From an uncultured Eubacteriales bacterium (GTDB taxonomy: Bacteria; Bacillota; Clostridia; Christensenellales; Pumilibacteraceae), in assembly GCA_949289095.1 (NCBI GenBank), contig CASEMM010000113.1:1-43920 (forward strand): DNA of 43,920 nucleotides, written 5' to 3'. Made by a program: the position numbers and the translations under genes. Positions 12,013 through 32,369 of the stretch are shown piece after piece. The notes below the pieces were generated by a model. That model was given only the letters and a program-made list of their open reading frames with translations. It searched no databases and was not told where the DNA came from. Position 1 is the first letter of the stretch. Every line of letters starts with the position of its first letter.

Positions 12013-13554
12013 ATGAAGAAATTATGCGGTTCTGCGGCGGCGCTTGCCGCCGCGGGCATTGCGGCGAAGTTTATCGGAGCGATGCACAAACTTCCTCTCA
12101 TAGCCTTTCTCGGCGCGGAAGGCACGGGACTCTATCAGCTTGCTTTTCCCGTCTATGCCGCAGTTCTCATGCTGACGAGCGGCGGAACGGTGCAGGCCGT
12201 ATCGCGCGAAGCGGCGCGCGAGGGAGGACGGGCGGCAGACGCGTTTTCCGCCGGACTGCTGTTCGCCGTAATTGCCGGCGTTGCGGGCGGCATGTTTATG
12301 GCTGCCGCGGGAAAGACCCTTGCCGCATTGCAGGGGAATCCCGAGGCATTCCCGTCCTATCTCGCCCTTGCTCCGGCAGTGCCGTTTTCCTGCGTCATAG
12401 CCGCTCTCCGCGGCTGGTGGCAGGGCAGGAGAAGTCTGCTTCCGACGGCTCTCGGTCAGCTGTCCGAGCAGGTTGTCAAACTTGTGCTCGGTCTTGCGCT
12501 ATCGCACGCCCTTATGCCGTTCGGAACGGCGTTTGCCGTGGCGGGTGCGCTTGCGGGCGTAACGGCGGGGGAGTTGTTTACATGCGCGGCAATGCTCGTC
12601 GCCGCGCGTGCGTCGCTCCGCCGGGAAAAGGAGCGCGGACGCGGGACGGGATTCTCCGTTGCGTTCCGCCGCATTGCGTGCGACGCTCTTCCGACGGCGC
12701 TCGGTGCTCTCGTTCTGCCCGCTTTGCAGCTGACCGACAGCGTAATGGTCGTGAATATTCTCACATCCGGCGGGATGTCGCCTTCGGAAGCGACGGCTCT
12801 TTACGGCGTTGCTACCGCTCCCGCGTCTGCGATAGCCGGGCTTCCTCCGATGCTTACGGCTGCTTATGCCGCGGCTCTTTTACCCGTGCTTACCGGCGGC
12901 AGCGAGGAGGATAAGCGCAGGGCGGCGTCAGGCGCGACGGGCGTTGCGTTTCTCGCGGGTATTGCCGGAGCTGCGGTCATGACGGTTTTTCCCTGCGAAA
13001 TAACGGACGTGCTGTATCCCGGCGGACTGAACGGTGAGCGTCTGGATACGGCGGTGTTCGCATTGCGCGCTTCCGGTGCGGGCGTAGCGTTCGTCTGTCT
13101 GAAACAGATAACGTCTGCGGCTTTGCAGGCGGAGGGCAGAGCATATATTCCGGCGCTGACAATGCTTGCGGCGGGAGCGGTCAAAGCCGCGCTTACCGCA
13201 GTGTTCGTGCGCGCGTTCGGGGCAGGAGGGGGAGCTGCGGCAACATCCGCGGCGTATGCGCTGTCTTTCGCCGCCGATGCTTTCGCATCGCGCGGAACGC
13301 TGCGCGCGTGCGCGCCCGTATTCACTATGCTCAAATGCTGCCTTGCCGTCGGAACGGGCGCCGCCGCGGGTATTGCCGCGCGGTTTCTTCCCGTTGCGGG
13401 AGCGCTGCCCGTCGCCGCAGTATGCGGAGGCGTATCCCTGCTCGCCGCTCTGCTCGTGCTGGTCGCTTCGAACGCTTTCGGCATTGCGTCGCGTCTGCCG
13501 TCCGCAGCGAAAATATTTTCCCGCATATTTGCCAATAAAATCAAAAAGAATTGA
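12013..13554 (+). CDS. MOP-superfamily polysaccharide/lipid II flippase (SpoVB/MurJ-like)
   Basis: Polytopic membrane protein. The N-terminus MKKLCGSAAALAAAGIAAKFIGAMHKLPLIAFLGAEGTGLYQLAFPVY resembles SpoVB/Wzx-type flippases. The upstream 61 codons of the track ORF are judged non-coding. Confidence 0.7.
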   Translation: MKKLCGSAAALAAAGIAAKFIGAMHKLPLIAFLGAEGTGLYQLAFPVYAAVLMLTSGGTVQAVSREAAREGGRAADAFSAGLLFAVIAGVAGGMFMAAAGKTLAALQGNPEAFPSYLALAPAVPFSCVIAALRGWWQGRRSLLPTALGQLSEQVVKLVLGLALSHALMPFGTAFAVAGALAGVTAGELFTCAAMLVAARASLRREKERGRGTGFSVAFRRIACDALPTALGALVLPALQLTDSVMVVNILTSGGMSPSEATALYGVATAPASAIAGLPPMLTAAYAAALLPVLTGGSEEDKRRAASGATGVAFLAGIAGAAVMTVFPCEITDVLYPGGLNGERLDTAVFALRASGAGVAFVCLKQITSAALQAEGRAYIPALTMLAAGAVKAALTAVFVRAFGAGGGAAATSAAYALSFAADAFASRGTLRACAPVFTMLKCCLAVGTGAAAGIAARFLPVAGALPVAAVCGGVSLLAALLVLVASNAFGIASRLPSAAKIFSRIFANKIKKN

Positions 13555-13579
13555 CAAATCGGCTTCATTAAATTATAAT
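13551..13579 (+). promoter_or_regulatory. Consensus sigma-A promoter TTGACA-17-TATAAT, 10 nt upstream of ATG 13590
   Basis: TTGACA at 13551-13556 contains the TGA stop (13552-13554) of the upstream gene. TATAAT at 13574-13579. No SD before the ATG. Confidence 0.65.
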
Positions 13580-13589
13580 CATAATTGAT

Positions 13590-14867
13590 ATGGTTTTTGC
13601 GTATGAATTCGATATATTCGGCATCCTTTACACGGCAATAGCCGCCGTTTTATTTGCGGCGCTCGTTGCCGCGTTTATCGTTTTCTGCGTCAGAAAAGCT
13701 CCGTGCGGACGCGGGACGGTTGCGTTCCGCGCGCTCGACATTATTCTTCTTGCGATACTCGCTGCGGTATGGTGCGTGTATATATTGATCCGTATCGGCA
13801 TATTTTCGCTAAGCGGAGAGGGATTTTCGTTCTATTCCGGCGGAGAGGTGATATTCACCGTACCGGGTTGCGTCAACGCTTATTTTATTGCGCACAGCGT
13901 GCTCGGTACGCTGCTTCTCGGCGCGGTTACGGCATTCTGCATAGCAGATCTCATACTGGCGTTTGCGCTGCGCCGCAAAGTCCCTTCCGCAAGTGCGGAA
14001 CCGCTTTCGGAAAGCGAAGAGTTTTCTCCGTACGGATCTCCCGCGCCTTATTCCGCCGCAGAAACCGCTTTTTCGGTGAGCGCGCCTGAAAATACGGGAC
14101 ATGCGGACGCCGCGGACGAAAAAGAACGGCAGTCGGAAGAATCAGCGGAAGCGCATGCGGCGGAAGAAATCATTAAGGAAGAAACTTCCGAAAGACCGGC
14201 AGAGGAGATATCTGCGGAAGAAGAAACGGCGGCAGAGCGTGAGACCGCGGAAGAGCGATTGTCTGAAGAGTGTGCGGATAAACCGGAAACGCTGCCGGAG
14301 GATGACCGCGCCATGCACCCGTCCGACGAGCCGCCGGCGGAAATCGAAGCGGAAGAATGTGTTGCGGAACAGCCTGCCGATGAGCAGACCGAACTTACCG
14401 CGGCAGAGCCGCCGGAGGAAGAACATAAAGCGGAGGAAGTCCCCGCCGGGCGTGAGGAAGGCTCTCTTTCCGCGGGCGTAGAGGAATTTGTACCCGCCGC
14501 GTCGGGAGCGGCGGAACGCGAACGGCAGCCGCGCCGCGACAGCTCGGTAATAACGGGAGTCCGTGAAAATCCGCGGGCTACGTCGCGTAAAAAATATGCG
14601 TCCGCGTTACAGCGTCCGGGTACGAAAAAGAACGTCCGGAGCGCTGCGGAAATCGAAGCGGAGGCGACAGCGCGCGACGAAGAGGAACGGCAGACCGCCG
14701 AAGAACGAATCGCGGCGCCCGCTCCCGGACCTCTGCCGATAACGCGCCGGCTTGTGATAACCAACAGGATGAACGTCGTGAACATGTACAACGAATATCT
14801 GCGCGAAAAGAAGGCTCACGAAAACGAAAAGATATCCGCGTCGTCTGACGAAGCGGACCGAAAGTAA
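13590..14867 (+). CDS. Membrane protein with long Glu/Ala-rich acidic disordered region (hypothetical)
   Basis: About 4 N-terminal TM helices (ILYTAIAAVLFAALVAAFIVF...), then an EE/AE-rich low-complexity segment and a basic C-terminus. Confidence 0.6.
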   Translation: MVFAYEFDIFGILYTAIAAVLFAALVAAFIVFCVRKAPCGRGTVAFRALDIILLAILAAVWCVYILIRIGIFSLSGEGFSFYSGGEVIFTVPGCVNAYFIAHSVLGTLLLGAVTAFCIADLILAFALRRKVPSASAEPLSESEEFSPYGSPAPYSAAETAFSVSAPENTGHADAADEKERQSEESAEAHAAEEIIKEETSERPAEEISAEEETAAERETAEERLSEECADKPETLPEDDRAMHPSDEPPAEIEAEECVAEQPADEQTELTAAEPPEEEHKAEEVPAGREEGSLSAGVEEFVPAASGAAERERQPRRDSSVITGVRENPRATSRKKYASALQRPGTKKNVRSAAEIEAEATARDEEERQTAEERIAAPAPGPLPITRRLVITNRMNVVNMYNEYLREKKAHENEKISASSDEADRK

Positions 14868-14907
14868 TAACAAACGGAACTACAAAACGGGTGGGAAAGG
14901 AAATCAT

Positions 14908-15849
14908 ATGTATCAGATAGGTATCGACATAGGCGGTACGACGGTCAAGGCCGGACTTGTCAGCGAAGGAAGGATCATTTCCTGGAAATCCGTCGTTACG
15001 GACGTGGATGCGGGCGCGGATAAAATCATCGCGGATATAGCCGGACTCGTGAACTCGCTCAAGGACGACGCGGGCGACAAGGTCATAACCGGCGTGGGCA
15101 TAGGTTGTCCGGGCGCGGTTAATTCCTGTTCGGGTATAGTGGATCACGCATATAACCTCAGATGGGAGTTCGTTCCGCTCGGAGAGAAAATGCAGCGTCT
15201 GACCGGCTATCCCACGCGCGTCTGCAACGACGCGAACGCGGCTGCGCTCGGCGAAGCGAAGTACGGAGCGGGCAAGACGTATAAGAGCAGCGTGTTCATC
15301 ACGATAGGAACGGGCATAGGCAGCGGAATAATAATAGACGGCAGACTGTTCGAGGGCAATCAGTCCAAGGGCGCGGAGATAGGTCACGTCGTCATAAAGT
15401 CCGGCGGCGAACCCTGCTCGTGCGGCAGACGCGGCTGTTTCGAAGCGTATTCTTCCGCGACGGCGCTCATACGCGACACCCGCCGCGCGATGATGCGCAG
15501 CAAATCGACCAAGCTGTGGGAAGTCTGTCCGAACATAGACGACGTGAACGGCAAGACGGTGTTCGACGCGATGCTGCTCGGCGACAAAGCCGCAAAGCGC
15601 GTGTTCGACAATTATATAACGATGCTTGGCGAGGGACTCGTCAATATCGTGAACGCGCTTCGTCCCGAGGCGATTATTCTCGGCGGAGGCGTGTGCGCGC
15701 AGGGCGACGTGCTGCTCAATCCGCTCAAAAAATACATAGCTAAATATTCGTTCGGGGAAGGTCCGCACGTCGGACTTCATACCGCGACGCTCAAAAACGA
15801 TGCGGGCATAATAGGCGCCGCAGCCCTCGTTGCATGGGCGGATAACTGA
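14908..15849 (+). CDS. glcK: ROK-family glucokinase
   Basis: MYQIGIDIGGTTVKAGLV ATP-binding motif. ROK zinc motif GHVVIKSGGEPCSCGRRGCFEAYSS. SD GGGAAAGGA. Confidence 0.85.
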   Translation: MYQIGIDIGGTTVKAGLVSEGRIISWKSVVTDVDAGADKIIADIAGLVNSLKDDAGDKVITGVGIGCPGAVNSCSGIVDHAYNLRWEFVPLGEKMQRLTGYPTRVCNDANAAALGEAKYGAGKTYKSSVFITIGTGIGSGIIIDGRLFEGNQSKGAEIGHVVIKSGGEPCSCGRRGCFEAYSSATALIRDTRRAMMRSKSTKLWEVCPNIDDVNGKTVFDAMLLGDKAAKRVFDNYITMLGEGLVNIVNALRPEAIILGGGVCAQGDVLLNPLKKYIAKYSFGEGPHVGLHTATLKNDAGIIGAAALVAWADN

Positions 15850-15866
15850 TCGAACAGGTTCGTGAA

Positions 15867-15909
15867 TACGCATAAAGCCGCGCCCGTACGGGCGTGGCTT
15901 TATGCGTAT
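15867..15909. terminator. Bidirectional terminator hairpin between convergent glcK and the dipeptidase gene
   Basis: ATACGCATAAAGCCGCGCCC-gtac-GGGCGTGGCTTTATGCGTAT. Long stem with one mismatch. Confidence 0.7.
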
Positions 15910-15937
15910 CGTTATTGCGCGCGAACGCGTCGTATCG

Positions 15938-17227
15938 TTACTTTCCGAATGCTTCGTCGAGCGCTATTATCGCACGATAGAATATTTCGGATAGCCGTGC
16001 GAAATCGGAGACGGGATAGCACTCGTCGGCGTCGTGCATGCGCGTATCCCGTCCGGGAAATACCGCGCCGAACGCTATGCAGCCGGGCAGTTCCTTGGCA
16101 TATGTTCCTCCTCCTATGTGCAGAGGGACGGATCCGAAGTCTCCCGTGCAGTCGCGGTATACTTTCATGAGCGTGTTCACGAGTATGCCGTTTTCGTCGT
16201 GCACGAGCGGCGGCGCATAATGAAGCACGGTTATATCGGTGCCTTCCGGCAGTACTTTTCCGAGCGCGCGCATAGCGTCCTCTTCCGAGTAGATCGCGCA
16301 CAGACGCATGTCCGCCGTCAGCGTTATTCTGCCGCCGCTCAGCGCACACATGCCGATATTGACCGTTGTGCTTCCCGTGACGTCTCTGCCGTTCAGACCG
16401 AGGCGTTCGGGAACGGACAGATCCCGGAAAAGTTCCGCGGCGCGTCCGAGTCCTTCGTCGGAAGGGAACATGGCTGCGAGACGCGGAAGCATTGCGGATA
16501 TTGCGTTTACTCCTCTTTCGGGTACTGATGCGTGCGCGGCTTTGCCGTTTGTTTCCAGCGTTTCGCGGCCGCGCTCGCCGTTCACGATCGCGCGGCAGAT
16601 CGCCGGGACTATGTTCGGTCTCGAACCGCCGTCGAGAGAGATGAGCTTTTCAGCCGTCTCCGCGCATCGCGGAAGGGTTATAGAAACGTGCAGTATGCCC
16701 TTTTCGCTCGCGGTGACGGGAAAGTCGGAGTCGGGAGTGAACGACACGAGGGGAATTTCGCAATGCGAGGCATAGTGTTTTATGCACGCCGACCCTTCTT
16801 CTTCGTTGCAGCCGGCGATCAGACGGATTCTTCCGTGTAACGGGTGTTTTTCCTTCGCTAAGCGCGCGAGTGCGTAAAGGCTCGCTATCAGCGGACCTTT
16901 ATCGTCGCTGACGCCGCGTCCGTACATCGTTCCGCCGCGCACGTCCAGAGAAAAGGGCGGGCTTGTCCAGCCGTTTCCCGCAGGCACGACGTCGAGGTGG
17001 GCGAGAATGCCGACGGTAATTCTGCCGTCGCCGTATTCCGCCCAACCCGCGTAGCCGTCGTCGTCGCCCGTATTCAGCCCCATTTCGCGCGCGCGGGACA
17101 GAAACAGATCGAGCGCGCGGCGGTTTTCCGCTCCGAACGGAGCGCCGGGAAGAGGGGCGGAGGCGACCGACGGAACGGCAACGAGAGCCGCAAGATCCTG
17201 CGTCATTCTTTTTGTATCGTAGTTCAT
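15938..17227 (-). CDS. pepV: M20-family dipeptidase (PepV/Sapep-like)
   Basis: M20 motifs GILAHLDVVPAG, GRGVSDDKGP, NEEEGS. The start at 17227 (MNYDTKRM...) is chosen because a consensus promoter ends 6 nt upstream. Confidence 0.8.
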   Translation of the reverse strand: MNYDTKRMTQDLAALVAVPSVASAPLPGAPFGAENRRALDLFLSRAREMGLNTGDDDGYAGWAEYGDGRITVGILAHLDVVPAGNGWTSPPFSLDVRGGTMYGRGVSDDKGPLIASLYALARLAKEKHPLHGRIRLIAGCNEEEGSACIKHYASHCEIPLVSFTPDSDFPVTASEKGILHVSITLPRCAETAEKLISLDGGSRPNIVPAICRAIVNGERGRETLETNGKAAHASVPERGVNAISAMLPRLAAMFPSDEGLGRAAELFRDLSVPERLGLNGRDVTGSTTVNIGMCALSGGRITLTADMRLCAIYSEEDAMRALGKVLPEGTDITVLHYAPPLVHDENGILVNTLMKVYRDCTGDFGSVPLHIGGGTYAKELPGCIAFGAVFPGRDTRMHDADECYPVSDFARLSEIFYRAIIALDEAFGK

Positions 17228-17233
17228 GCTTTT

Positions 17234-17262
17234 ATTATATTTTATGCGCGCAATTATGTCAA
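17234..17262 (-). promoter_or_regulatory. Consensus sigma-A promoter TTGACA-17-TATAAT ending 6 nt before ATG 17227 (leaderless)
   Basis: On the minus strand: TTGACA (17262-17257), 17 nt, TATAAT (17239-17234), aaaagc, ATG. No SD. Confidence 0.7.
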
Positions 17263-17280
17263 CTTTATTCATTAAAACTA

Positions 17281-17309
17281 TTGACAACGTGGCTTTCGGC
17301 GTGTATAAT
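17281..17309 (+). promoter_or_regulatory. Consensus sigma-A promoter TTGACA-17-TATAAT ending 7 nt before ATG 17317 (leaderless)
   Basis: TTGACA at 17281-17286, TATAAT at 17304-17309, atgcgat, ATG 17317. No SD. Confidence 0.7.
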
Positions 17310-17316
17310 ATGCGAT

Positions 17317-17802
17317 ATGAATGCAGTATGCTTAACGGGCAATCGTCCGCATAAACTCCCTTTCAGGGAGGGCAGCCGCGAGCAGCAGCTCCTGACGGAA
17401 CGAATGAAGAACGCCGTCACGGAGCTGATAGGAGAGGGCTACCGTCGGTTCATTACGGGCATGGCGCTCGGTTCGGACATCTGGTTCGCCGAATGCGTCA
17501 TAGACCTGATGGATGTGTATCCCGACATAGAACTCGAAGCTGCCGTGCCGTATGCGGGTCAGCGCGACAGCCTTGCGGCTGCGGACAGATTCCGTTACGA
17601 CGCGGTGCTGTCCAGGTGTTCGAAAGTGACGATGCTCGGCAACGAATATACCAAATACTGCATGAGCAGGCGCAACCGTTATATGGTGGATAATTCGGAC
17701 GTTGTACTCGTCGTTCTTTATTCGGAAACGGGCGGAACGGCAAACACGCTTGCTTACGCGAAGAAAAAAGGCAGGCGGATAATAGATCTTTCGTCCGTGT
17801 GA
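17317..17802 (+). CDS. SLOG-superfamily DUF1273 protein (YpsA-like)
   Basis: MNAVCLTGNRPHKLPF...RRFITGMALGSDIWFAECVIDL...GGTANTLAYAKKKG matches the DUF1273/YpsA pattern. Confidence 0.75.
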   Translation: MNAVCLTGNRPHKLPFREGSREQQLLTERMKNAVTELIGEGYRRFITGMALGSDIWFAECVIDLMDVYPDIELEAAVPYAGQRDSLAAADRFRYDAVLSRCSKVTMLGNEYTKYCMSRRNRYMVDNSDVVLVVLYSETGGTANTLAYAKKKGRRIIDLSSV

Positions 17803-17887
17803 CCGTCGCACGTCGGTTGCAAGCGGAATAGAAATATAATAATCGGACGATAATAAATCGGACCGTGAGATCAGGAGACAGCTACTT

Positions 17888-18340
17888 ATGGAGAAAAAGA
17901 CGTATATACTCTGCCCCAGATGCGAACTCAACTACATGGATTCGAGGGAGAAGTATTGCGATGTATGCAAAGCCGAGCTGGGTATCGGCGAAGCGAGTTT
18001 CCTTCTTCCGGATGAGGAGGATGAATCGGAAGGCAAGCTCTGTCCCATATGCCACACCAATTACTGCGAAGAGGGCGAGGACATGTGCATAGAGTGCAAG
18101 AAGGAACGAGCTGCCAAGGAGAAAGACGAAGAGTCGGACGGCTGGAACGACGACGAAGAAGTTGCGGCGGATCTGGACGACGATCTCGACGATATGTCGT
18201 TGGGCGATCTGGACGACGAAGAGGAAGAAACCGACGACGCGTCATCCGAAGAGGACGATTTCGAATATATCAACCCGGATGACTTTGCCGAAGACGGCGA
18301 TGACGACGATGACGAAGAGGATGACAATTTCACTGCCTGA
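17888..18340 (+). CDS. Double zinc-ribbon protein with a poly-acidic C-terminal tail (hypothetical)
   Basis: CxxC pairs at C9/C12, C24/C27 and C52/C55, C67/C70. The last ~70 residues are dominated by D/E. SD AGGAGA. Confidence 0.65.
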   Translation: MEKKTYILCPRCELNYMDSREKYCDVCKAELGIGEASFLLPDEEDESEGKLCPICHTNYCEEGEDMCIECKKERAAKEKDEESDGWNDDEEVAADLDDDLDDMSLGDLDDEEEETDDASSEEDDFEYINPDDFAEDGDDDDDEEDDNFTA

Positions 18341-18363
18341 AAGAAAGGCATAAACGCTGACGG

Positions 18364-18392
18364 ACGCGCCCCGCATGAGCGGGGCGTTTTTT
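18364..18392 (+). terminator. Rho-independent terminator
   Basis: CGCCCCGC-atga-GCGGGGCG followed by TTTTTT (18387-18392). Confidence 0.85.
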
Positions 18393-18450
18393 GCGCTCAT
18401 AAAACCGTCGCGCCCGGCATACGTTATAGGGAATCGTAAAGGAGGAACGT

Positions 18451-19938
18451 ATGAACGAAAATCTTTCCCGGGTGAGTGCGGGGTATATAAGAAAAGCCGC
18501 GGAAGTGCAGACCATTGCGCACATAAACGTGCGGTGCGACGGCGCTGCGGGCGTGCTGGGAGTGAGCGCGAACGCCGCAGTGCGCGTCAGCGAGACTATA
18601 AGCGGGGAAGTCCGTCTTGCCGGCAGAGAGTCCGTTGAAGTGACCGTGACGACTGAGGACGGGCTTAAAAAGGCGAGCGGATTTGCGGAAATTTCCGACA
18701 GGGCGGAGATAGAGGGAGTAACGCCGCAGACGCGCGCTTTTGCGGTATGCCGTGTGACCGATACGGATATAGTGTCGGTTGGCGGCGGCATCATAACGCT
18801 TGCTTCCGTCGTTGAGACGACGGTATATGTCGAGGAACGCGTATTCCTTCCCGATCCGCCGGAATCTTCCGAAGGCATATATACCGACAGCCGCGAAACG
18901 GAATTTTCACGGCTGACTTCCCGTACGACGGTGCGTATCGAGAGCGGCGACAGCGAAAAGCTGCCCATAACGGAAGTGGTTTGCTGCAATGCGGGATTTG
19001 CCGCGGACGCTCCGGAAGCGGCGCTCGACGCGGTCTATGTGTCCGGAAGATTCATCATAGAGGGCGTCGGTAAGACGGCTGACGGCGGCATTGCACCGTT
19101 TTCGGCGGAACTGTCCGCGTCTGCGGAAGCGGCGTCTGACGGCGCGCGCAGAGGCGACGTCGCGTTTGTCATGTGCGGCGGCGTATCCGTTGCCGAGAGC
19201 AGGAGCGAGAACGGAGTGACGCTGTCCGCGAGCGCCGAATTGTATACGGAAACTTACGGCAAGGTGACTGCCGCCGTGGTAACGGACGCGTTTTCTCCGT
19301 CGTGCAGACTTTCGCTGACGCGTTCGCATATATGCGGAATGATAACGGACGGCGCGTTTACTCTCACCGATAAGGCGGAGGGTATCGTCGCTCTTCCAGA
19401 GGGGGATGCGGCGGACAAAGTTACGGCGGTGTGCGGATTTACGGTCACGGCGCTTTCCGCATATGCGGAGAACGGAAAAACCGTGCTCGAAGGCGCGGCA
19501 GGAGGATATGTCGTATATTCCGATGCGGAAGCGGGCAGACGCGGTTCCGCAGTTGCGGAACTGCCGTTCCGGATCGTCACGGATATTCCCGCCGCGGACG
19601 GCGACGAGCCTCGTGCGTCCGGCACGGTACTGTCTGTGATCGCGCGTCCGGCGAGAAGAGGAGAAATTGCCGTGACGTGCACGCTGCGCTTTTCCGTGCT
19701 TTCGTGCCGCAGCGTTAGTGCGGATCCCGTCACGTCTGTGGCAGAAGGCGAACCGCTTGCGGATAAAACGGGCGTACTGTCCATGCACGCCGCGTCTGAA
19801 GGCGAAACGCTGTGGGAGTGCGCAAAAGCGCTGTCCGTCCCGCCGGACACGGTGCTTGCGCAGAATCCGGATACGGTATTTCCGATGTCGCGCGGGGATA
19901 AGGTATTCGTATTCCGGTCGGCGCGCGCCCGCGAATAA
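18451..19938 (+). CDS. DUF3794-like protein with C-terminal LysM-like domain (spore-associated, hypothetical)
   Basis: Repetitive beta-rich body. C-terminal ...SEGETLWECAKALSVPPDTVLAQNPDTVFPMSRGDKVFVF resembles LysM. SD AAAGGAGGA. Confidence 0.55.
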   Translation: MNENLSRVSAGYIRKAAEVQTIAHINVRCDGAAGVLGVSANAAVRVSETISGEVRLAGRESVEVTVTTEDGLKKASGFAEISDRAEIEGVTPQTRAFAVCRVTDTDIVSVGGGIITLASVVETTVYVEERVFLPDPPESSEGIYTDSRETEFSRLTSRTTVRIESGDSEKLPITEVVCCNAGFAADAPEAALDAVYVSGRFIIEGVGKTADGGIAPFSAELSASAEAASDGARRGDVAFVMCGGVSVAESRSENGVTLSASAELYTETYGKVTAAVVTDAFSPSCRLSLTRSHICGMITDGAFTLTDKAEGIVALPEGDAADKVTAVCGFTVTALSAYAENGKTVLEGAAGGYVVYSDAEAGRRGSAVAELPFRIVTDIPAADGDEPRASGTVLSVIARPARRGEIAVTCTLRFSVLSCRSVSADPVTSVAEGEPLADKTGVLSMHAASEGETLWECAKALSVPPDTVLAQNPDTVFPMSRGDKVFVFRSARARE

Positions 19939-19953
19939 TAAATTGCGGTATAG

Positions 19954-19983
19954 CGGCGGACGCTTGTCAAAAAGCGTCCGCCG
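19954..19983 (+). terminator. GC-rich hairpin (terminator of the upstream gene) overlapping the ispE promoter
   Basis: CGGCGGACGCTT-gtcaaa-AAGCGTCCGCCG. 12-bp stem, 19954-19965/19972-19983. Confidence 0.55.
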
Positions 19984-19992
19984 TGTTATAAT
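19964..19992 (+). promoter_or_regulatory. Sigma-A promoter TTGTCA-17-TGtTATAAT ending 6 nt before ATG 19999 (leaderless ispE)
   Basis: TTGTCA at 19964-19969, extended -10 TGT+TATAAT at 19984-19992, acggtt, ATG. No SD. Confidence 0.7.
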
Positions 19993-19998
19993 ACGGTT

Positions 19999-20817
19999 AT
20001 GAAGGTCAGGGCATACGGAAAACTGAATCTGTCGCTGACGATAACCGGACGGCGCGGCGGACTGCACACGCTGGACGGCGTTATGCATTCCGTCGGTATA
20101 TGCGACGAACTGACGGTGACCGAAAACGACGTCATCGGAGTTACCGTGAACGGGGCAGACATTCCCGAAGAAAAAAATACCGCTTTTGCAGCTGCCGCGC
20201 TCGTACGCGAACGATTCGGGCTTGTTCTCCGGGCGGAGATAGTGAAACGCATTCCGGTCGGAGGAGGAATGGGCGGTTCGTCGGCTGACGCCGCAGGAGT
20301 GCTTGCGGCAGCCGCGCGCATGCTCGGCGATCGCGCGCTGCCCGGGCTGTTGACGATAGCCGCAGAGATAGGCAGCGACGTGCCGTTCATGCTTCGCGGA
20401 GGATGCGCGAGAGTACGCGGTACGGGAAACGAACTGACCGCGTTGCCGTTCGTTCCGTTTACCGCGCTCGTTGCGGACTGCGGCGCGGTAAGCACGCCGC
20501 AGTGTTACGGACTTTACGACACGCTTCCGGAAGAAAACGCGCCCGATCCGGAAGATGCGGTTGCCGACGTAATGCAAGGCAGATTTCCGCGCACGCCTTA
20601 TAACGCGCTCGGCCGTCCGGCAGCCGTTCTTAATCCGCTTGTCGGAGAATGCGTGCGTGCGGCGGATGAAGCGGGGTATACGGCAGTCGTGACCGGCAGC
20701 GGCGGTTGCGTGTATGTGCCCGATGCTTCCGTCGGCGCGGAGCGCGTGTTTGAAAAACTGGGCGTTCCGTATTTCCGCGTCGATTCCGTGCGGGCGGGAA
20801 CGGATGTTACAGTTTAG
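19999..20817 (+). CDS. ispE: 4-diphosphocytidyl-2-C-methyl-D-erythritol kinase
   Basis: MKVRAYGKLNLSLTITGRR... and GHMP kinase motif IPVGGGMGGSSADAAGVL. Ends in TAG. Confidence 0.9.
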   Translation: MKVRAYGKLNLSLTITGRRGGLHTLDGVMHSVGICDELTVTENDVIGVTVNGADIPEEKNTAFAAAALVRERFGLVLRAEIVKRIPVGGGMGGSSADAAGVLAAAARMLGDRALPGLLTIAAEIGSDVPFMLRGGCARVRGTGNELTALPFVPFTALVADCGAVSTPQCYGLYDTLPEENAPDPEDAVADVMQGRFPRTPYNALGRPAAVLNPLVGECVRAADEAGYTAVVTGSGGCVYVPDASVGAERVFEKLGVPYFRVDSVRAGTDVTV

Positions 20818-23413: not shown

Positions 23414-23441
23414 CGGATACCGCGTGAGCGGAGAGCATGTG

Positions 23442-23482
23442 AAACGCCCGCGCTGCTTAAATCAGGCAGCGCGGGCGTTTTG
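23442..23482. terminator. Bidirectional terminator between convergent ypeB and the nitroreductase gene
   Basis: AAACGCCCGCGCTGC-ttaaatcag-GCAGCGCGGGCGTTTT. 15-bp stem. Confidence 0.8.
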
Positions 23483-23495
23483 CCGCAGATCAATA

Positions 23496-24047: not shown

Positions 24048-24068
24048 AATGATTCCTCCCTGCGGGTA

Positions 24069-24275: not shown

Positions 24276-24277
24276 TT

Positions 24278-25102: not shown

Positions 25103-25983
25103 CTTCTTCTGAGATCCTTTTCAGTTAAAGCAACACTTAAGCATACACGCTCATTGAATAATCTGCTCGCAATGCGCTCTCCGTATCTGTCTGCGAGCGC
25201 AGTGGGGGAGAGATTGGTCGTTATCAGCGTATGACGGCGGGCGTTCATGCGTTCGCTGACGACGGTATAAAGGTATTCGAGCGTGACGTTGCGCAGAATG
25301 CTCTCCGTACCGAGGTCGTCTATTACGAGCAGATCCGCGCCGAGCAGCGCGTCCAGCGTTTCGGAGCGGGACGGCTCGAATGACGTGTGGTATCTGCGGC
25401 AGGCGTCGTTGAATCCGAACGCCGTCAGAAACACCACGGAAAAGCCGCGCGCTTCCAGTTCGTTGGATATCGCGGAGGCAAGGCAGGTCTTGCCAGTACC
25501 CACGCTGCCGATAAGAAGCAGGTTTATGTTTTTCGTGTGCGGGAACTTGTCGCAGAATACGCGCATTGCGGAATACGCCGCATCCATCGTTTCGCGGTCG
25601 CGTCCGGAGAATACGGATATATCGCAGTCGGCGAACGTGAACTGAGGAACGGACGAACCGTCCGCGTCCATACTCGCCCTGCGCCGCGTGCAGTCGCAGT
25701 ATCTGCCGCTCACATAGCCGGTGTCGCCGCAGAGAGGACATGCGGGCTGCGGATCGAAGTCGGCGGGTGAATAACCGTGAGCGGCGAGGAGCGCGTCGCG
25801 CCGCGCCGTGAGTGCGGCGATCTCATCGTCGCTTGCGCCGTCGAGAACGGCGGAGCGCAGTTGCTTTTCCGCATCTGCGAGCGTTTCGTCCGCGTCGAGC
25901 AGCGCGAGAAAGCGCGCCCGCGCGGCTGCGCGCCGTGCCGAATATTCGCTCTTTATGAGATTTGCCGCAGTTTTGCAATCCAT
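25099..25983 (-). CDS. DnaC/DnaI-like helicase-loader AAA+ ATPase
   Basis: Walker A LLLIGSVGTGKTCLASAI and Walker B DLLVIDDLGTE. N-terminal Cys cluster CPLCGDTGY...CDC. ATGA overlap with the downstream gene. Confidence 0.8.
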   Translation of the reverse strand: MDCKTAANLIKSEYSARRAAARARFLALLDADETLADAEKQLRSAVLDGASDDEIAALTARRDALLAAHGYSPADFDPQPACPLCGDTGYVSGRYCDCTRRRASMDADGSSVPQFTFADCDISVFSGRDRETMDAAYSAMRVFCDKFPHTKNINLLLIGSVGTGKTCLASAISNELEARGFSVVFLTAFGFNDACRRYHTSFEPSRSETLDALLGADLLVIDDLGTESILRNVTLEYLYTVVSERMNARRHTLITTNLSPTALADRYGERIASRLFNERVCLSVALTEKDLRRR

Positions 25984-25987
25984 TGCG

Positions 25988-27418
25988 TCAGATGTCCTCC
26001 GGGTTTATATGTTTGAGTTTGTAATTTAAGCTGTCTGCTTCATCATTGCTTAATTTTTGAGGCATGGCTGAATTTTGTGAATTTGTTTTAATATTAAGTT
26101 TTTTCGCTCCTTCGACGTCCGTCACGCCGCACTCGCGGTATTGCTTGACGAGCATGTGCATGCGCACTCGGGGATTCGCTTCTCCCATGCTGCGCTCCGC
26201 CGCGTATGCGAGCAGTTCGGGGGATATGTGCCAGTAGTTTGTCCAGATATTATAGCTGTCGCGGTCGCGGGAAGTGACGTCGCCGCTTATACCGGCTTTT
26301 TTGAGCAGAGCGGATATCGCCGCATCGAATTTGCCCTCTCCGGCAAAGCGCGCGCGTACCGCGTTCTCATCCGTCGCGCCCTCTGCCGCGCACTCCCGGA
26401 GAAGCGCGCTCATCTTTTCGCAGGACTTTTTTTCGTGACGGAAACAGTAGTCCGCGACAATAATAAGCGACTGCGCGTCGAATCCCGCTTTAAGCCATTC
26501 CTTGACGTACGTTTCGGCATAGTAATCGAGATGATTGTACCTCACATCGAGGCGCGCAAGCAGTTCTTTCGTCAGAGAAAGCAGGTTGTCGCGGCTCTTG
26601 CGATATTCCTCTATATCGCGCAGGTCTGTCAGTCCGTCCGCATGATAGCGGGTGAGAAGGGTATCCAGTCCTTTCATTTCGCCGTATACGCCCTTTGCGA
26701 CGTACATTACCGCGGCGGGAGAAAATCCCATTTCCTCCGTCCATTTGCGGTACATGCGCACATCTTCGAAGTCCTGCGCGCGGCGGATTTTGAGCGTTTT
26801 GAACAGTTTCGCCACGTCCGACGATATTATGTCGCTTGCTGCGAGTTTAGCTTCCACTTCGTCCGCCGTGCGGCAGCCTTCGTTTGCGAGGTTGCGAGCA
26901 ACGGTCACTATATATTTCCATCCGACGCTTTTTCCTTTCAGCCGCGCGCAATACGCGATTATTCCGAGCATGGCGTCCGTATCTATGTGACAGTCCTCGA
27001 TGACCGAGTAATATTCGTTGAGTTCGCTGGGCAGAAAGTCGCGGTTGGGGAACATCTTCATCAGCATTTCGTTGAACGCCGTGAATTTCTTTTTCGAATA
27101 CGTTTTGAGCGACGGACGCGTATAGCGCACCGGAGTGTACTCCACTTCGTACGGCGGCACGGCGGAAATGCGCACGAGTCCGTGATCCTGCCAGTAGGAG
27201 AAAGCCTCCATGACGTCGTCCTCCGTCATCCCCAGCAGTTTTGCCATGCGGTCGGGAGTGTTGTCCGCACCCGAATTGCCCTCTGCGAGCATCTTGCCGT
27301 ATATGTATACCTTTGTATAGCTTTCGGGTGCGAAGGGCATAAGTTCGAGTATGAACACGTTATCCAGCTCGATCCCCGTCTTTGCCGTCAGTTCGCTGCT
27401 CAGCCGCGTAAAAGCCAT
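25988..27418 (-). CDS. DnaD-domain replication initiation protein (Bacillus DnaB/DnaD-like)
   Basis: N-terminal DnaB_2-type winged helix (ELDNVFILELMPFAPESYTKVYIYGKML) and repeated DnaD-like segments. Paired with the helicase-loader gene. SD GGAGGA. Confidence 0.7.
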   Translation of the reverse strand: MAFTRLSSELTAKTGIELDNVFILELMPFAPESYTKVYIYGKMLAEGNSGADNTPDRMAKLLGMTEDDVMEAFSYWQDHGLVRISAVPPYEVEYTPVRYTRPSLKTYSKKKFTAFNEMLMKMFPNRDFLPSELNEYYSVIEDCHIDTDAMLGIIAYCARLKGKSVGWKYIVTVARNLANEGCRTADEVEAKLAASDIISSDVAKLFKTLKIRRAQDFEDVRMYRKWTEEMGFSPAAVMYVAKGVYGEMKGLDTLLTRYHADGLTDLRDIEEYRKSRDNLLSLTKELLARLDVRYNHLDYYAETYVKEWLKAGFDAQSLIIVADYCFRHEKKSCEKMSALLRECAAEGATDENAVRARFAGEGKFDAAISALLKKAGISGDVTSRDRDSYNIWTNYWHISPELLAYAAERSMGEANPRVRMHMLVKQYRECGVTDVEGAKKLNIKTNSQNSAMPQKLSNDEADSLNYKLKHINPEDI

Positions 27419-27460
27419 TGATCATCCTCCGTTAAGCGCAATCGAATGCACGTATATAAT

Positions 27461-27489
27461 ATAATAACACATCCGCCTGTGATTGACAA
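27461..27489 (-). promoter_or_regulatory. Sigma-A promoter TTGTCA-17-TGtTATTAT for the dnaD-like operon
   Basis: On the minus strand: TTGTCA (27489-27484), 17 nt, TATTAT (27466-27461), with an upstream TGT. Confidence 0.6.
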
Positions 27490-27502
27490 GCGCTTTGCGC
27501 TT

Positions 27503-27539
27503 CGAAAAAGCGCGGCGCGGGATATTTCCCGCGCCGCGC
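27503..27539 (-). terminator. Rho-independent terminator of cysS
   Basis: 13-bp perfect stem GCGCGGCGCGGGA/TCCCGCGCCGCGC (27510-27522/27527-27539), followed on the minus strand by TTTTT (27509-27505). Confidence 0.85.
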
Positions 27540-27566
27540 GGCGGCAGCGTCATGCCGCATGCGTTT

Positions 27567-28952
27567 TTATCCGTTCTTTTTCAGCGTATATCCGTCTTTT
27601 GAATCGAGGACTGTCCAGCCCTTTTCCGCCAGTTCGGCACGAAGCGCGTCGCTCTCCGCCCAGTTTTTCGCCCTGCGTGCGGCGAGCCGTTTTTCCGCAA
27701 GTTCTTTCACTTCGGGCGGGATATCGTCATCGTGTTTCTCGTCGCATTTGTCCAGCGAGAGTCCGAGCACTTTGTCGGCGCGCATAGCCGCGTCGTAAAT
27801 ATCGCGCGACGGGGGATTTTTGAGAAGCGTCCACAGTTCTCCCAGCCCGAGCGGAATATTGAGGTCGTCGCTGACCGCGTCGGCAAAAGTCCTGTCGAAG
27901 TCCGCTATCGTTGCGGGATCGGTTTTTGTATCCGAATGTTTGCAAGCGGCTGTCAGCGCGAGCAGGCGGGAATATGCCGTCTTTGCGCCGTCCATGCCCT
28001 CGAACGTGAAGTTGAGCTTTTTGCGGTAATGCGTGTTGAGACAGAAGTAGCGGAAGTCCATGGGGGAGTAGCCCTTTTCCGCAAGTTCGTCCAGCGTGTA
28101 TGTGTTGCCCAGACTCTTGCTCATTTTGCGCCCGTCAACCTGCATGAATTCGACGTGCATCCAGTAGTGAACCGCGGGGTGACCGAGCAGCGCTTCCGAC
28201 TGCGCTATTTCGTTTTCGTGGTGAATGGGTATGTGATCGACTCCTCCGGTGTGTATGTCGAACGTGTCGCCGAGATACTTGCGCGACATCGTCGAGCACT
28301 CTATGTGCCAGCCCGGATAACTGCGTCCCCACGGCGAATCCCATTGCATTATGTGTTCTTTGGGAGCTTTCTTCCAGAGCGCGAAGTCAGCCGGATTGCG
28401 CTTTTCTCCGTTGACGTCCACGCGCGCGCCCGCAATATTGTCGGAAAGGCGGGTATTGCCGGACAGTTTGCCGTATGAAGGGAATTTCGATATGTCGAAA
28501 TAAATTCCGTCGCTCGTTTCGTATCCGTAACCTTTTTCCACGAGCTGTTCGACGAATCCGAGCATGTCTGCAATGTGATCCGTGGCTTTTGCGACGATTT
28601 CGGGACGCTCTATGTTCAGCTTATCCGTGTCCTCGAAGAACAGCTTCGTGAAGTGCTCCGCGATCTCCCACGGCGTTTTGCCCGTCTTTTTCGCCGCGTT
28701 TTCCATCTTGTCGTCGCCGTCGTCCGCGTCCGAGGTCAGGTGACCGACGTCCGTTATGTTCATGACGCCGAGCAGCTTATAGCCGTTGAATTTTATTACG
28801 CGGCGCAGCGTGTCCATAAATATGTATGCGCGCATGTTTCCCATGTGCGCGCGGGAATACACCGTCGGTCCGCACGAATACATGCGCACTTCGCCGGGGT
28901 GTACGGTGATGAGTTCTTCTTTTTTCCGGGTGAGTGTGTTGTAAACTATCAT
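27567..28952 (-). CDS. cysS: Cysteine--tRNA ligase
   Basis: [16 protein letters not shown] (HIGH region) and KMSKSLGN (KMSKS). ATG 28952 overlaps the cysE stop (ATGA). Confidence 0.95.
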
Positions 28953-29608
28953 TGTTCGTCCTCGCTGCAATCGCACGGCGATTTGCCTGCGGCGGTTTCC
29001 AGCCGTCTTATTCTGCGTTCGAGCGCGTTCAGTTTATCTTCGACGGGGTCGGGAAGAGCCTGATCGAGGTCGTCCGTGCGTTCTCCGTTGAGCCTGACCA
29101 CGACTCCCGGCACGCCGACGACGGTGGCGTTTGCGGGAACGTCTTTGAGAACGACGCTGCCCGCGCCTATCTTTGCGTTTCGCCCTATCGTTATCGGTCC
29201 GAGCACTTTCGCTCCCGCGCTTATCATTACGCCGCTTTCGACGGTAGGGTGGCGTTTGCCCTTGTCTTTGCCCGTGCCGCCCAGCGTCGCGCCCTGATAT
29301 ATCGTCACGTTGTTGCCGATCTCCGCGGTTTCGCCGATAACTACGCCCGTGCCGTGGTCTATGAAAACGCCGTATCCGATCTTCGCGCCGGGATGTATTT
29401 CGATGCCGGTAAAAAATCTGCCGATCGACGAGATCATTCTTGCGATCAGCTTAAACCCCCTGACGTGCAGGTAGTGCGCGATGCGGTACAGCACGAGCGC
29501 GTGAAATCCGTTATACGTCAGAACGATTTCCCATGCGCCTGTAGCTGCGGGATCGTGCGTGCGCGCCGCTTCGAGGTCCGCCTTGATTTTGTTTATTTTT
29601 CTCTTCAT
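28949..29608 (-). CDS. cysE: Serine O-acetyltransferase
   Basis: [30 protein letters not shown]-terminal helix domain and hexapeptide repeats [11 protein letters not shown]...[22 protein letters not shown]. Confidence 0.92.
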
Positions 29609-29629
29609 ACGCAGTCTCCGCGGCGCGTA

Positions 29630-30040
29630 TCAGAGGAAAGAAAGCAGGTCGAGTACCGCGCCGAATTTGCTCACACCCTCATCATATTCTTTTTCATCGG
29701 TCAGAATGCCTTTGAATTTGTCTTCGAGCGCAATGACGGTGCGTTTGAGCACGTCCATGCCCTTGTCCGTTATCGCATACATTACGGCGCGCCTGTCGTC
29801 GGGACGGCGTGTCTTTGTAAGTTCGCCGTCTTTCTGCATTTTCCCGGTAAGCAGAGCGAGATTGGATTTGACCATGCACAGCTTGCTCATCAGTTCGGCG
29901 GGAGAAAGAGGTCCGCCCGAAAGCAGATAAAGCAGCTTTATCCGGAGAGTGAGCGGCTCCGCCTGCGTGCCTGAAAGATTGCAAGCGCTCCGCGACGCTA
30001 TATCGAGTTCTATCAGCAGTTCGCCCGCCGACTTTCTCAT
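29630..30040 (-). CDS. MarR-family transcriptional regulator
   Basis: Winged-helix segment LSPAELMSKLCMVKSNLALLTGKMQKDGELTKTRRPDDRRAVMYAITDKG. SD AAGGGGG before ATG 30040. Ends 21 bp upstream of cysE. Confidence 0.8.
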   Translation of the reverse strand: MRKSAGELLIELDIASRSACNLSGTQAEPLTLRIKLLYLLSGGPLSPAELMSKLCMVKSNLALLTGKMQKDGELTKTRRPDDRRAVMYAITDKGMDVLKRTVIALEDKFKGILTDEKEYDEGVSKFGAVLDLLSFL

Positions 30041-30096
30041 GACGTGACCCCCTTGGCGGAGCGGTCGAATGCCGCGTATCCGCATTGCTTTGGATT

Positions 30097-30125
30097 ATTA
30101 TATAATAACGCGGCGGGTTCGTCAA
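30097..30125 (-). promoter_or_regulatory. Sigma-A promoter TTGACG-17-TATAAT for marR-cysE-cysS
   Basis: On the minus strand: TTGACG (30125-30120), 17 nt, TATAAT (30102-30097). About 55-nt leader. Confidence 0.6.
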
Positions 30126-30231
30126 GCGATATTCGGAATCTCTTTCCGCGCATTTTGCGGCGGGCAGCCGCTTCCGCTGTCCTTCGCGCCCGAATTTCAT
30201 ACCGAAATGGCAATTTTTTTTCAAAAAAGTA

Positions 30232-30260
30232 TTGCAAAAGTTGCAAGTATATGCTAAAAT
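30232..30260 (+). promoter_or_regulatory. Sigma-A promoter TTGCAA-17-TGcTAAAAT for spoVG
   Basis: TTGCAA at 30232-30237, TGC+TAAAAT at 30252-30260. Confidence 0.6.
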
Positions 30261-30320
30261 AATTATACAGTCACCGAAACGGTGCAGTGAGAAAAATAAT
30301 CAAACAGGAAGGGTCACACA

Positions 30321-30602
30321 ATGAACATTACGGAAGTTCGTGTAAGACTGGTCAAAAAGGAAGAGGGTAAGCTGAAAGCCGTGGCATCCGTAACGATAGA
30401 CGATTGTTTCGTCATCCATGACGTGAAGATAATCGAGGGCGCGGAAGGATGCTTTATCGCTATGCCTTCCAAACGCACGCCGGACGGCGAATATAAGGAC
30501 ATAGTGCATCCTCTTAACACGGAAACGCGCGAAATGATGGGGCGCGCCGTGCTCGCCGAGTATGAAAAGGCGAAGAGAGAGTCGGAAAGCGCGGGTGTAT
30601 GA
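30321..30602 (+). CDS. spoVG: Septation protein SpoVG
   Basis: [40 protein letters not shown]...[22 protein letters not shown] is nearly invariant SpoVG sequence. Confidence 0.95.
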
Positions 30603-30693
30603 CCCGTTTTCTCCGACTATGCAGAGGATGATCCGGACAGTATCGGCGCGGTGCATGCGCCGTACGCCGTATGCGCCGCATAGTTGCGGCGAC

Positions 30694-30726
30694 AGACCGC
30701 AGATCGGAAAGGTCTGCGGTTTTTGC
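30694..30726 (+). terminator. Rho-independent terminator of spoVG
   Basis: ACCGCAGA-tcggaaagg-TCTGCGGT followed by TTTTT. Confidence 0.8.
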
Positions 30727-30737
30727 GTGTCAAAGTG

Positions 30738-30766
30738 TTGCAATACGCGGCGCGTTGTGTTACAAT
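30738..30766 (+). promoter_or_regulatory. Sigma-A promoter TTGCAA-17-TGtTACAAT ending 6 nt before ATG 30773 (leaderless)
   Basis: TTGCAA at 30738-30743, TGT+TACAAT at 30758-30766, aaactc, ATG. No SD. Confidence 0.65.
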
Positions 30767-30772
30767 AAACTC

Positions 30773-31609
30773 ATGAAAGTTGCAAAAGACGACAGCGGAA
30801 TAACGGTTGAAGGGAGTGAATATTTTTCCGTCGCCGACACGCTGGAGTGCGGGCAGATGTTCCGTTTCGCGCCGCGCGGCGGCGGATATGAGGTGCGTTC
30901 GGCGGATAAGTCCTGCTTTTTGCGGCAGACGGAAAGCGGAGTCAGGATAGATACGTCCGATCCGGATTATTTTTACGGGTATTTCGCGCTTGACGAAGAT
31001 TACGGAGATTATTACGAGCGTCTGCACGCTTTTCCCGAACTGAAAGAAGCAAGCGAAGCCGGCAGGGGAATACGCCTGCTCCGCCAGGATCCGTTCGAGA
31101 TGATAATATCGTTCATCATCTCCGCGAACAACAACATTCCGCGGATAAAGGGCATCATAGAACGGCTTGCCGCGCGTGCCGGGCGGCGGACGAACGGCGG
31201 GTACGCGTTCCCGACGCGCGACGAACTGCTTCCGCTGACGCAGGCGGACTATGCCGCTCTCGGCGCGGGCTACCGCGACTCTTATCTGTACTCCGCCGTA
31301 CGAACGGTGACGGAAGATTTCCTGAATGAGCTGAAATCTCTGCCGACTGCGGAGGCGAGGAAGATGCTTCTCACCGTCAAGGGCGTGGGACCGAAAGTGG
31401 CGGACTGCATAGTGCTGTTCGGACTGGGCAGACGGGATTCCTTTCCGGTGGATACATGGATGAAAAAGGCGCTGGGCGGCGGAGAATTGGATACGCCCGT
31501 AAAGATTCACGACTTCTATATGGCGCGGTACGGAGATCTCGCCGGACTTGCGCAGCAATACATATTCCATTACGCGCGCAACGTGGTTTCGGCAGCGCGC
31601 AACGATTGA
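30773..31609 (+). CDS. ogg: 8-oxoguanine DNA glycosylase/AP lyase (HhH-GPD, Ogg-type)
   Basis: N-terminal ADTLECGQMFRF and HhH-GPD motif VKGVGPKVADCIVLFGLGRRDSFPVDTWMKK with the catalytic Lys/Asp pattern. Confidence 0.8.
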   Translation: MKVAKDDSGITVEGSEYFSVADTLECGQMFRFAPRGGGYEVRSADKSCFLRQTESGVRIDTSDPDYFYGYFALDEDYGDYYERLHAFPELKEASEAGRGIRLLRQDPFEMIISFIISANNNIPRIKGIIERLAARAGRRTNGGYAFPTRDELLPLTQADYAALGAGYRDSYLYSAVRTVTEDFLNELKSLPTAEARKMLLTVKGVGPKVADCIVLFGLGRRDSFPVDTWMKKALGGGELDTPVKIHDFYMARYGDLAGLAQQYIFHYARNVVSAARND

Positions 31610-31634
31610 CATATCCGCATGCGCGGCGTATAAT
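31606..31634 (+). promoter_or_regulatory. Consensus sigma-A promoter TTGACA-17-TATAAT ending 6 nt before ATG 31641 (leaderless)
   Basis: TTGACA at 31606-31611 contains the ogg TGA stop (31607-31609). TATAAT at 31629-31634, cgtagt, ATG. No SD. Confidence 0.7.
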
Positions 31635-31640
31635 CGTAGT

Positions 31641-32369
31641 ATGTTCGGAAAATACGAAAAGACGGGCGATATATCATACAGTCTCGGGGCTTTTCCCACG
31701 GTGGAGCTGATAAAGCGCCGCCCTCAGGATATCGAGCGCATAGCGCTCAGCTCCGATCTGCGCATGACGGACGAGCTGGAACGCATTCTCGCACCCGTGC
31801 GCGGCGTAACGGCTGTGGACGACAAAGCGATAGCGCGCGTTGCGAAAAAGGGCAACGTGTATATGGCGGGAGCGTTCCGCAAGCGCTTCGCGGAGTTCGG
31901 CGCGTGCAGTCACGTCGCGCTCGTACATCCGTCCGACGAGGGCAATCTCGGAACGATAATGCGCACCATGCTGGGATTCGGCATAAAGAATCTTGCCGTA
32001 ATAGGCGAGGGCAGCGCGGACGCGTATAACCCGAAAACGGTGCGCGCGTCCATGGGCGCGATATTTTCTCTCGATATATGCGTATATCCGGACTGGCAGG
32101 CGTATGCCGCCGCGCATAAAGAGCGCAGGCTGATGTTCATGCTGGACGGACGCAGCGTTACGCTCGGTTCGGTACGCGCGGAAGAGCCGTATGCGCTCGT
32201 GTTCGGCAACGAGGGGGCGGGACTTCCGCCGGAACTCGCGGAAGAGGGAACGCCGGTCATAATACGGCACAGCAGGGATATAGATTCGCTCAATCTGCCG
32301 CAGGCGGTTGCGATAGGACTATACGAAACGACAAAACACATTTTCAGCGGAGATACATATCATGAGTAA
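31641..32369 (+). CDS. TrmH/SpoU-family RNA 2'-O-methyltransferase
   Basis: SpoU motifs [24 protein letters not shown], and [16 protein letters not shown]. Confidence 0.8.

Follow-up and report, generated by a model that had tools for sequence, protein, structure and literature searches.

How do ribosomes find the start codon of a gene whose promoter ends only a few nucleotides (nt) before it? This question is raised by a 43,920-nt stretch of DNA (hereafter the window) from an uncultured Eubacteriales bacterium of the family Pumilibacteraceae, in which five genes – pepV-like, ypsA-like, ispE, ogg and SpoU/TrmH-like – are preceded by promoters that directly abut their ATG codons. The window is the largest contig (CASEMM010000113.1) of the 1.60 Mb assembly GCA_949289095.1 (202 contigs, 55% GC, 92% complete). 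An initial annotation of the DNA had described -35 and -10 boxes 17 nt apart, followed at these five genes by only 6–7 nt and the start codon, along with three weaker cases. Direct reading and an independent consensus promoter scan, which covered positions 13000–32500, found the five sites (ATGs at 17227 (-), 17317, 19999, 30773 and 31641) exactly as claimed, and the weaker sites at 13590 (10 nt), 42987 (-) (8 nt) and 5118 (-) (8 nt, poor -35) are also present. As had been stated, a GGAGG-like element lies between the -10 box and the ATG at none of the eight (0/8), and Pfam bore out the gene names (Peptidase_M20, YpsA, GHMP kinase, OGG_N, SpoU_methylase, Amidohydro_2 and DUF1256). The promoter geometry and its conservation suggest that these genes are quite probably expressed as leaderless or nearly leaderless mRNAs.

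The strongest evidence for such predicted leaderless expression comes from conservation in orthologues. Our comparison set comprised 17 genomes of the same genus, other genera and families of the order, and 193 Clostridia of other orders. Across the genus, the geometry is kept at 40–70% protein identity. At ispE, a TGnTATAAT-6 nt-ATG arrangement is found in 13 genus genomes with 40–56% protein identity – the spacer being fixed in length and variable in sequence. The same arrangement occurs in several other families of the order, and in still other families ispE has a distant promoter and a GGAG-type Shine-Dalgarno (SD) element. IspE proteins from SD-led and leaderless-type orthologues align from residue 1 over the N-terminus M-K-x-x-A-Y-G/A-K-L/I-N.

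The remaining four genes extend this picture to differing degrees. The SpoU/TrmH-like gene has exactly 6 nt in 16 genus genomes and an N-terminus, MF(R/G)AY(D/E)K, that is conserved from residue 1; one genome of the genus (G013) and two distant orthologues have AGGAG or GGAGG instead. The leaderless geometry of the pepV-like gene is present in 16 of the 17 genus members, at 6 nt (7 nt in one), and the promoter keeps pace with the ATG where the N-terminus is displaced by -12 to +21 nt; G013 and most orthologues of other genera and families are SD-led at this gene. The ypsA promoter was recovered in 16 genomes, with 7 nt in 15 and 6 nt in one (G004). For ogg, the geometry is kept only in the three closest relatives with a readable upstream region and is not clearly recognisable in more distant members of the genus.

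At ispE, trmH-like and pepV, orthologues that lack the close promoter carry GAGG, AGGAG or GGAGG. This pattern – conservation of the geometry in orthologues and an SD in its place when it is lost – suggests that the geometry is under selection. The claim that the N-termini fit the expected starts of their families was upheld by orthologue alignments and Pfam, which point to the promoter-adjacent ATG as the probable true N-terminus. Position 1 of the PF06908 profile, for example, falls on YpsA residue 4. When ten leaderless-type genes from across the genome were compared with Pfam, profiles began at residues 1–7 where an N-terminal domain was present (residue 4 for Ham1 and residue 7 for the PolA exonuclease domain).

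One member of the genus differs from the rest. G013 (loci L133, L157 and L009) is SD-led at pepV and trmH-like, where 15–16 others are leaderless in type, and its ispE shows no clear close promoter. G013 may represent a reversion to SD or an early branch.

A genome-wide search for -10 boxes near ATGs, which the initial annotation had proposed, returned a positional signal. We profiled -10-like hexamers by position relative to candidate starts, using gene calls from a simple self-trained open reading frame (ORF) caller (1153 genes of at least 90 amino acids [aa]), and found a -10 box exactly 6 nt upstream of 54 candidate ATGs, against ~12 at comparable spacings. This peak is for ATG only: GTG was counted 8 times (vs ~4) and TTG twice. 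We repeated the test independently of gene calls with 601 strong promoter-like sites across the genome. At 57 of these an ATG follows at 6 nt, compared with a mean of 11.9 at other spacings (Poisson P = 4e-21), and here ATG outnumbers every other triplet. Of the 57 ATGs, 46 open ORFs of at least 100 codons (background mean 3.6; P = 1e-34). A second, smaller peak stands at 7 nt (16 vs 3.6 ORF-opening ATGs; P = 1e-6). An SD-like element was seen in 1 of the 60 leaderless candidates listed, most of which have a -35 box matching at least 4/6 positions at 17±1 bp or a TGn extension. The leaderless-type geometry – a -10 box 6–7 nt before AUG without an SD – is thus supported both by the genome-wide peak and by orthologue conservation. 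The density of such sites in the window is ~3x that of the genome as a whole, and all four of the perfect (12/12) TTGACA-17-TATAAT matches in its scanned part sit 6–10 nt upstream of a gene ATG.

To place this signal among other lineages, we counted TGNTANNAT-N6-ATG in whole genomes and compared it with the identical pattern carrying N9. The 17 genomes of the genus contain 493 N6 and 205 N9 matches, a ratio of 2.40, with 14 of the 17 at 2 or above. The ratio is 1.80 in other genera of the family, 3.13 in the sister family f19 together with f18, and patchy (0.4–3.7) in other families of the order. The 193 Clostridia of other orders have 6778 N6 and 6394 N9 matches, a ratio of 1.06 (median 1.04, maximum 2.6). 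Among the genomes compared, N6 enrichment is a trait of this lineage within Clostridia, with weaker signs in a few other families (e.g., f53/g62 and f64/g82).

The signal is densest in f19 (G084, G115, G142, G169 and G195), a sister family with AT-rich, 100%-complete genomes of 0.8–1.0 Mb that contain 32–52 TGnTAnnAT-N6-ATG sites, compared with 7–21 at N9. Seven of ten sampled f19 sites (L185–L194) open ORFs of 75–376 codons, which is unlikely by chance at 25–38% GC; these example loci were picked by a -35 plus extended -10 pattern with a spacer 3 nt too long, so that the pattern undercounts. IspE and the PepV-like M20 peptidase were not found in the five complete f19 genomes, and the orthologue conservation described above therefore cannot be extended to this family.

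Two candidate correlates of the enrichment were rejected. Small genome size does not account for it, as other Clostridia of 1.1–1.3 Mb have N6/N9 ratios of ~1. Loss of ribosomal protein S1 was also discarded, as the present genome (G000) encodes an S1-type protein: a 691-aa open frame with three S1 RNA-binding domains lies at ~34500–35180 (-) of its contig C122.

Within the genome, the leaderless-type genes form a minority. By our own gene calls, which leave out genes shorter than 90 aa and make the percentages approximate, 47 genes at 6 nt and 12 at 7 nt, or 59 of 1034 (5–6%), are of this type, as are ~39 of ~442 operon-leading genes (~9%). A clear SD precedes ~70% of genes genome-wide, in agreement with the initial statement that other genes in the window carry strong SDs, and GGAGG-type motifs peak 4–10 nt upstream of these other starts; the genome is SD-dominated. 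The leaderless-type set consists mostly of single housekeeping genes, plus some regulators and transporters. It includes enzymes of DNA repair and nucleotide sanitation (Ogg, UDG, Ogt, Ham1, the PolA 5'-3' exonuclease domain and dCMP deaminase), RNA modification proteins (SpoU, an RsmB/F-like protein and a PP-loop protein), GTPase Der, ArgRS and BirA. Uracil-DNA glycosylase has leaderless geometry both in G000 (contig C148, 4008 (-)) and in the f19 genome G084 (L187), the latter identified from its N-terminus by eye.

These distributions allow a tentative extension, which we regard as more doubtful than not by a wide measure: one order of uncultured gut Clostridia may have seen an independent expansion of leaderless initiation, spanning the genus, its family and the sister family with 0.8–1.0 Mb genomes. 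Individual genes would then alternate between starting at an AUG next to the promoter and starting with an SD, as G013 does relative to its genus, and the leaderless set, with its many DNA-repair and RNA-modification enzymes, might constitute a jointly tuned translation class, for example under conditions favouring 70S initiation.

The proposed mechanism for the individual genes follows from the position of the promoter. RNA polymerase usually starts ~7 nt past the -10 box, and six intervening bases would therefore make the A of the ATG coincide with this point. A housekeeping sigma-A-type promoter (-35 box, 17-bp spacer and -10 box, the last in many cases TG-extended) would in this way set the RNA polymerase start on the A of the ATG, the resulting transcript would have neither a 5' untranslated region (5' UTR) nor an SD, and the ribosome would recognise the 5'-terminal AUG as in known leaderless translation. 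An Rfam scan of the window found no known RNA family, and none of the promoters thus belongs to a described leader RNA. Coordinates of the promoters, genes and other features are collected in Table 1.

Table 1. Promoters, predicted leaderless genes and further features of the window. Spacings are between the -10 box and the ATG.
Feature	Position	Strand	Sequence or spacing	Evidence
pepV-like promoter	17234..17262	-	TTGACA-17-TATAAT-aaaagc(6)-ATG 17227	Direct reading and consensus scan
pepV-like Peptidase_M20 gene, predicted leaderless	15938..17227	-	Without SD	Pfam PF01546
YpsA-like promoter	17281..17309	+	TTGACA-17-TGtGTATAAT-atgcgat(7)-ATG 17317	Direct reading and consensus scan
YpsA (SLOG family) gene, predicted leaderless or 1-nt leader	17317..17802	+	N-terminus MNAVCLTGNRPH conserved	Pfam PF06908
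ispE promoter	19964..19992	+	TTGTCA-17-TGtTATAAT-acggtt(6)-ATG 19999	Direct reading and consensus scan
ispE (GHMP kinase) gene, predicted leaderless	19999..20817	+		Pfam
Intrinsic-terminator-like hairpin and U-run, between upstream gene and ogg promoter	30695..30729	+		
ogg promoter	30738..30766	+	TTGCAA-17-TGtTACAAT-aaactc(6)-ATG 30773	Direct reading and consensus scan
8-oxoguanine DNA glycosylase gene (ogg), predicted leaderless	30773..31609	+		Pfam OGG_N from residue 16
SpoU/TrmH-like promoter	31606..31634	+	TTGACA-17-TATAAT-cgtagt(6)-ATG 31641	Direct reading and consensus scan
SpoU-family RNA methyltransferase gene, predicted leaderless	31641..32369	+		Pfam PF00588
425-aa membrane-like protein start	13551..13592	+	TTGACA-17-TATAAT, 10 nt, ATG 13590	
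Amidohydro_2 gene start	42985..43024	-	TTGACC-17-TGtTAATCT, 8 nt, ATG 42987	
DUF1256 (yyaC-like) gene start	5116..5132	-	TATAAT, 8 nt, ATG 5118; poor -35	
Start of 151-aa ORF 29630-30085	30085-30125	-	TTGACG-17-TATAAT, 11 nt, ATG; without SD	

The surroundings of the five promoters are compact. The pepV and ypsA promoters are divergent and take up the 89-bp intergenic region between their genes, and the -35 box of the SpoU/TrmH-like promoter overlaps the ogg stop codon. Terminator-like hairpins stand 5' of the ispE and ogg promoters; the one upstream of ispE has a predicted folding energy of -30.1 kcal/mol (z -6.0). Together, the hairpins and the filled pepV/ypsA spacer leave little room for leadered transcripts.

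The hairpin at ispE also shares DNA with the promoter. Here (19953–19992) a 13-bp GC hairpin that comes after the upstream gene carries the -35 box (TTGTCA) in its loop. In orthologues the stem has a different sequence and its pairing is kept (e.g., AAGGGGAC...GTCCCCTT and GGAGGC...GCCTC), which indicates that promoter and terminator-like hairpin occupy the same DNA across the genus. At ogg, the longest ORF runs from an ATG at 30671 and would cross both the terminator hairpin and the ogg promoter (30671–30772); a start at this ATG is unlikely to be used.

The weaker sites have their own histories in orthologues. The 10-nt spacing at 13590, whose gene gave no match in a Pfam search and has a predicted leader of 3–4 nt, is kept in four orthologues and shortened to 6 nt in one (G003). 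The promoter of the 42987 gene lies at 6–8 nt in orthologues; its N-terminus M-x-x-DFHTH is conserved, position 1 of the Amidohydro_2 profile falls on residue 3, and the alternative ATG at 43005 is not conserved. At 5118, -10-like boxes stand 7–9 nt upstream of the ATG in most of five orthologues. A site at 30085 (-), absent from the initial annotation, is a further case of a very short predicted leader.

Several points weigh against leaderless expression, or against applying it to every site. The peaks of the promoter-site scan are confined to 6 and 7 nt: spacings of 8, 10 and 11 nt are at background genome-wide, and the 8–11 nt sites (13590, 42987, 5118 and 30085) would give predicted leaders of 1–5 nt. 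The 8- and 10-nt cases in the window thus appear to be supported only individually, by orthologue conservation, and not as a genome-wide class. For the 6–7 nt genes, too, we infer the transcription start on the ATG, and ribosome initiation on a 5'-terminal AUG, from geometry and conservation. Many start sites that looked leaderless in Clostridium phytofermentans had another start upstream and retained a ribosome binding site (RBS) (PMC5171806); additional upstream promoters could likewise serve some of the leaderless-type genes described here.

The alternative that survives best builds on this last point. The main transcripts might come from promoters farther upstream and be leadered, with initiation that is independent of SD (e.g., at an unstructured, AT-rich start), the close promoter being minor. 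Besides the C. phytofermentans precedent, in which leaderless starts usually had another start upstream, an AT-rich -10 box would reduce mRNA structure around the start codon, and low structure there helps non-SD initiation (PMC5397173). An AT-rich element, however, needs no -35 box at 17 bp, no TG extension and no spacing fixed to the nucleotide. Terminator-like hairpins separate the upstream genes from the ispE and ogg promoters, the 89-bp pepV/ypsA region has no space for a further promoter, and an SD appears in orthologues from which the close promoter has been lost. We consider this explanation improbable.

Mis-assigned start codons are a much weaker possibility, one to which we give very little credence. 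On this account the real starts would be downstream in-frame codons with an SD, and the promoter-adjacent ATG would lie in a short 5' UTR. The starts are indeed not self-evident, as ~45% of candidate ATGs are preceded by another start codon in their open frame, and codon 29 of ogg is an in-frame ATG with GGAG 9 nt upstream. Yet the residues before such later starts are conserved in orthologues and lie inside Pfam domains (OGG_N, YpsA, Amidohydro_2, Ham1 and the PolA exonuclease), the IspE N-terminus aligns with SD-led orthologues from its first residue, and a long ORF begins at 81% of the ATGs that lie at 6 nt, compared with 30% of those at other spacings. A chance or compositional effect, by which TATAAT-like hexamers fall near ATGs in AT-rich intergenic DNA, has a practically negligible probability: AT-rich Clostridia do show the pattern tens of times at any spacing, but here one spacing is enriched (with the Poisson P values given above), a reversed-pattern control gave 4 matches vs 37, the geometry persists in orthologues of 40–70% identity, and the spacing profile and orthologue conservation have already refuted this reading.

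Predicted leaderless expression has practical consequences for annotation. Gene finders that are tuned to SDs or take the longest ORF will misplace starts in this lineage, since almost half of the candidate leaderless ATGs have another start codon ahead of them in the same frame. The proposed ATG lies 3' of the longest-ORF start by 34 codons at ogg, 31 at trmH-like and 20 at pepV; longest-ORF annotation could add 34 spurious codons to ogg and similarly over-extend trmH-like and pepV. A promoter that abuts the ATG also allows promoter and transcription start to be read from sequence, which is useful for uncultured gut Clostridia without transcriptomics. Finally, the restriction of the enrichment to this lineage, together with orthologues that differ naturally in being leaderless or SD-led, can inform comparative work on how one initiation mode replaces another in a phylum usually held to be SD-dependent.

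In classical leaderless mRNAs, such as those of phage lambda cI and Tn1721 tetR, the 5'-terminal AUG is the sole initiation signal and AUG is strongly preferred. There the genes stand alone on mobile elements and their host is SD-dependent, whereas the candidates described here are dozens of chromosomal housekeeping genes inherited across a genus. At the other extreme stand the group C genomes of GeneMarkS-2, comprising Actinobacteria such as Mycobacterium tuberculosis and Deinococcus-Thermus, in which 25–50% of operons are leaderless (Lomsadze et al. 2018, PMC6028130). With ~9% of operon-leading genes, the present genome falls below this range and would remain in the SD-dominated group A. Its promoters also have a full TATAAT and a clear -35 box, in contrast to the looser TAnnnT of high-GC Actinobacteria. 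The spacing of 6–7 nt does lie within the 6–8 nt that GeneMarkS-2 gives for the -10-to-start distance of bacterial leaderless genes (PMC6028130).

The closest parallels are found among other Firmicutes. In the survey of Zheng et al. (2011, BMC Genomics 12:361, PMC3160421), 56 of 209 Firmicutes had predicted leaderless genes, at a mean of 4.2% (range 2.4–16.6%); these were mainly in Lactobacillales and Mycoplasma and had TG-extended TATAAT boxes. Our sites resemble their Lactococcus and Streptococcus predictions in having a TATAAT-type Pribnow box, often TG-extended, ~10 nt upstream of the start, and the genome resembles their Firmicutes in being otherwise SD-dominated with a similar share of leaderless genes (PMC3160421). 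The initial suggestion of an unusual translation-initiation landscape therefore holds relative to most Clostridia, given the N6/N9 ratios of 2.4 vs 1.06, and not for the phylum, where 5–6% falls within the surveyed range and GeneMarkS-2 had already placed 36 of 1064 Firmicutes in the leaderless class (PMC6028130). In the mapped transcriptomes of solventogenic clostridia (PMC9045289) and C. phytofermentans (PMC5171806), leaderless mRNAs account for ~2–3% of transcripts or 4% of start sites. Those bacteria belong to the same class as the present one and share its sigma-A promoter type, and a minority of their transcripts have a 5' UTR shorter than 6 nt; unlike C. phytofermentans, in which the RBS is mostly kept and an alternative start lies upstream (PMC5171806), our sites have no SD and are conserved as such. 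The Zheng et al. survey, which placed leaderless genes in Lactobacillales and Mycoplasma and not in Clostridia (PMC3160421), is complemented here by one order of uncultured gut Clostridia with a pattern that is absent from most other Clostridia sampled – adding a lineage, and only a lineage, to a leaderless mechanism that was already established.

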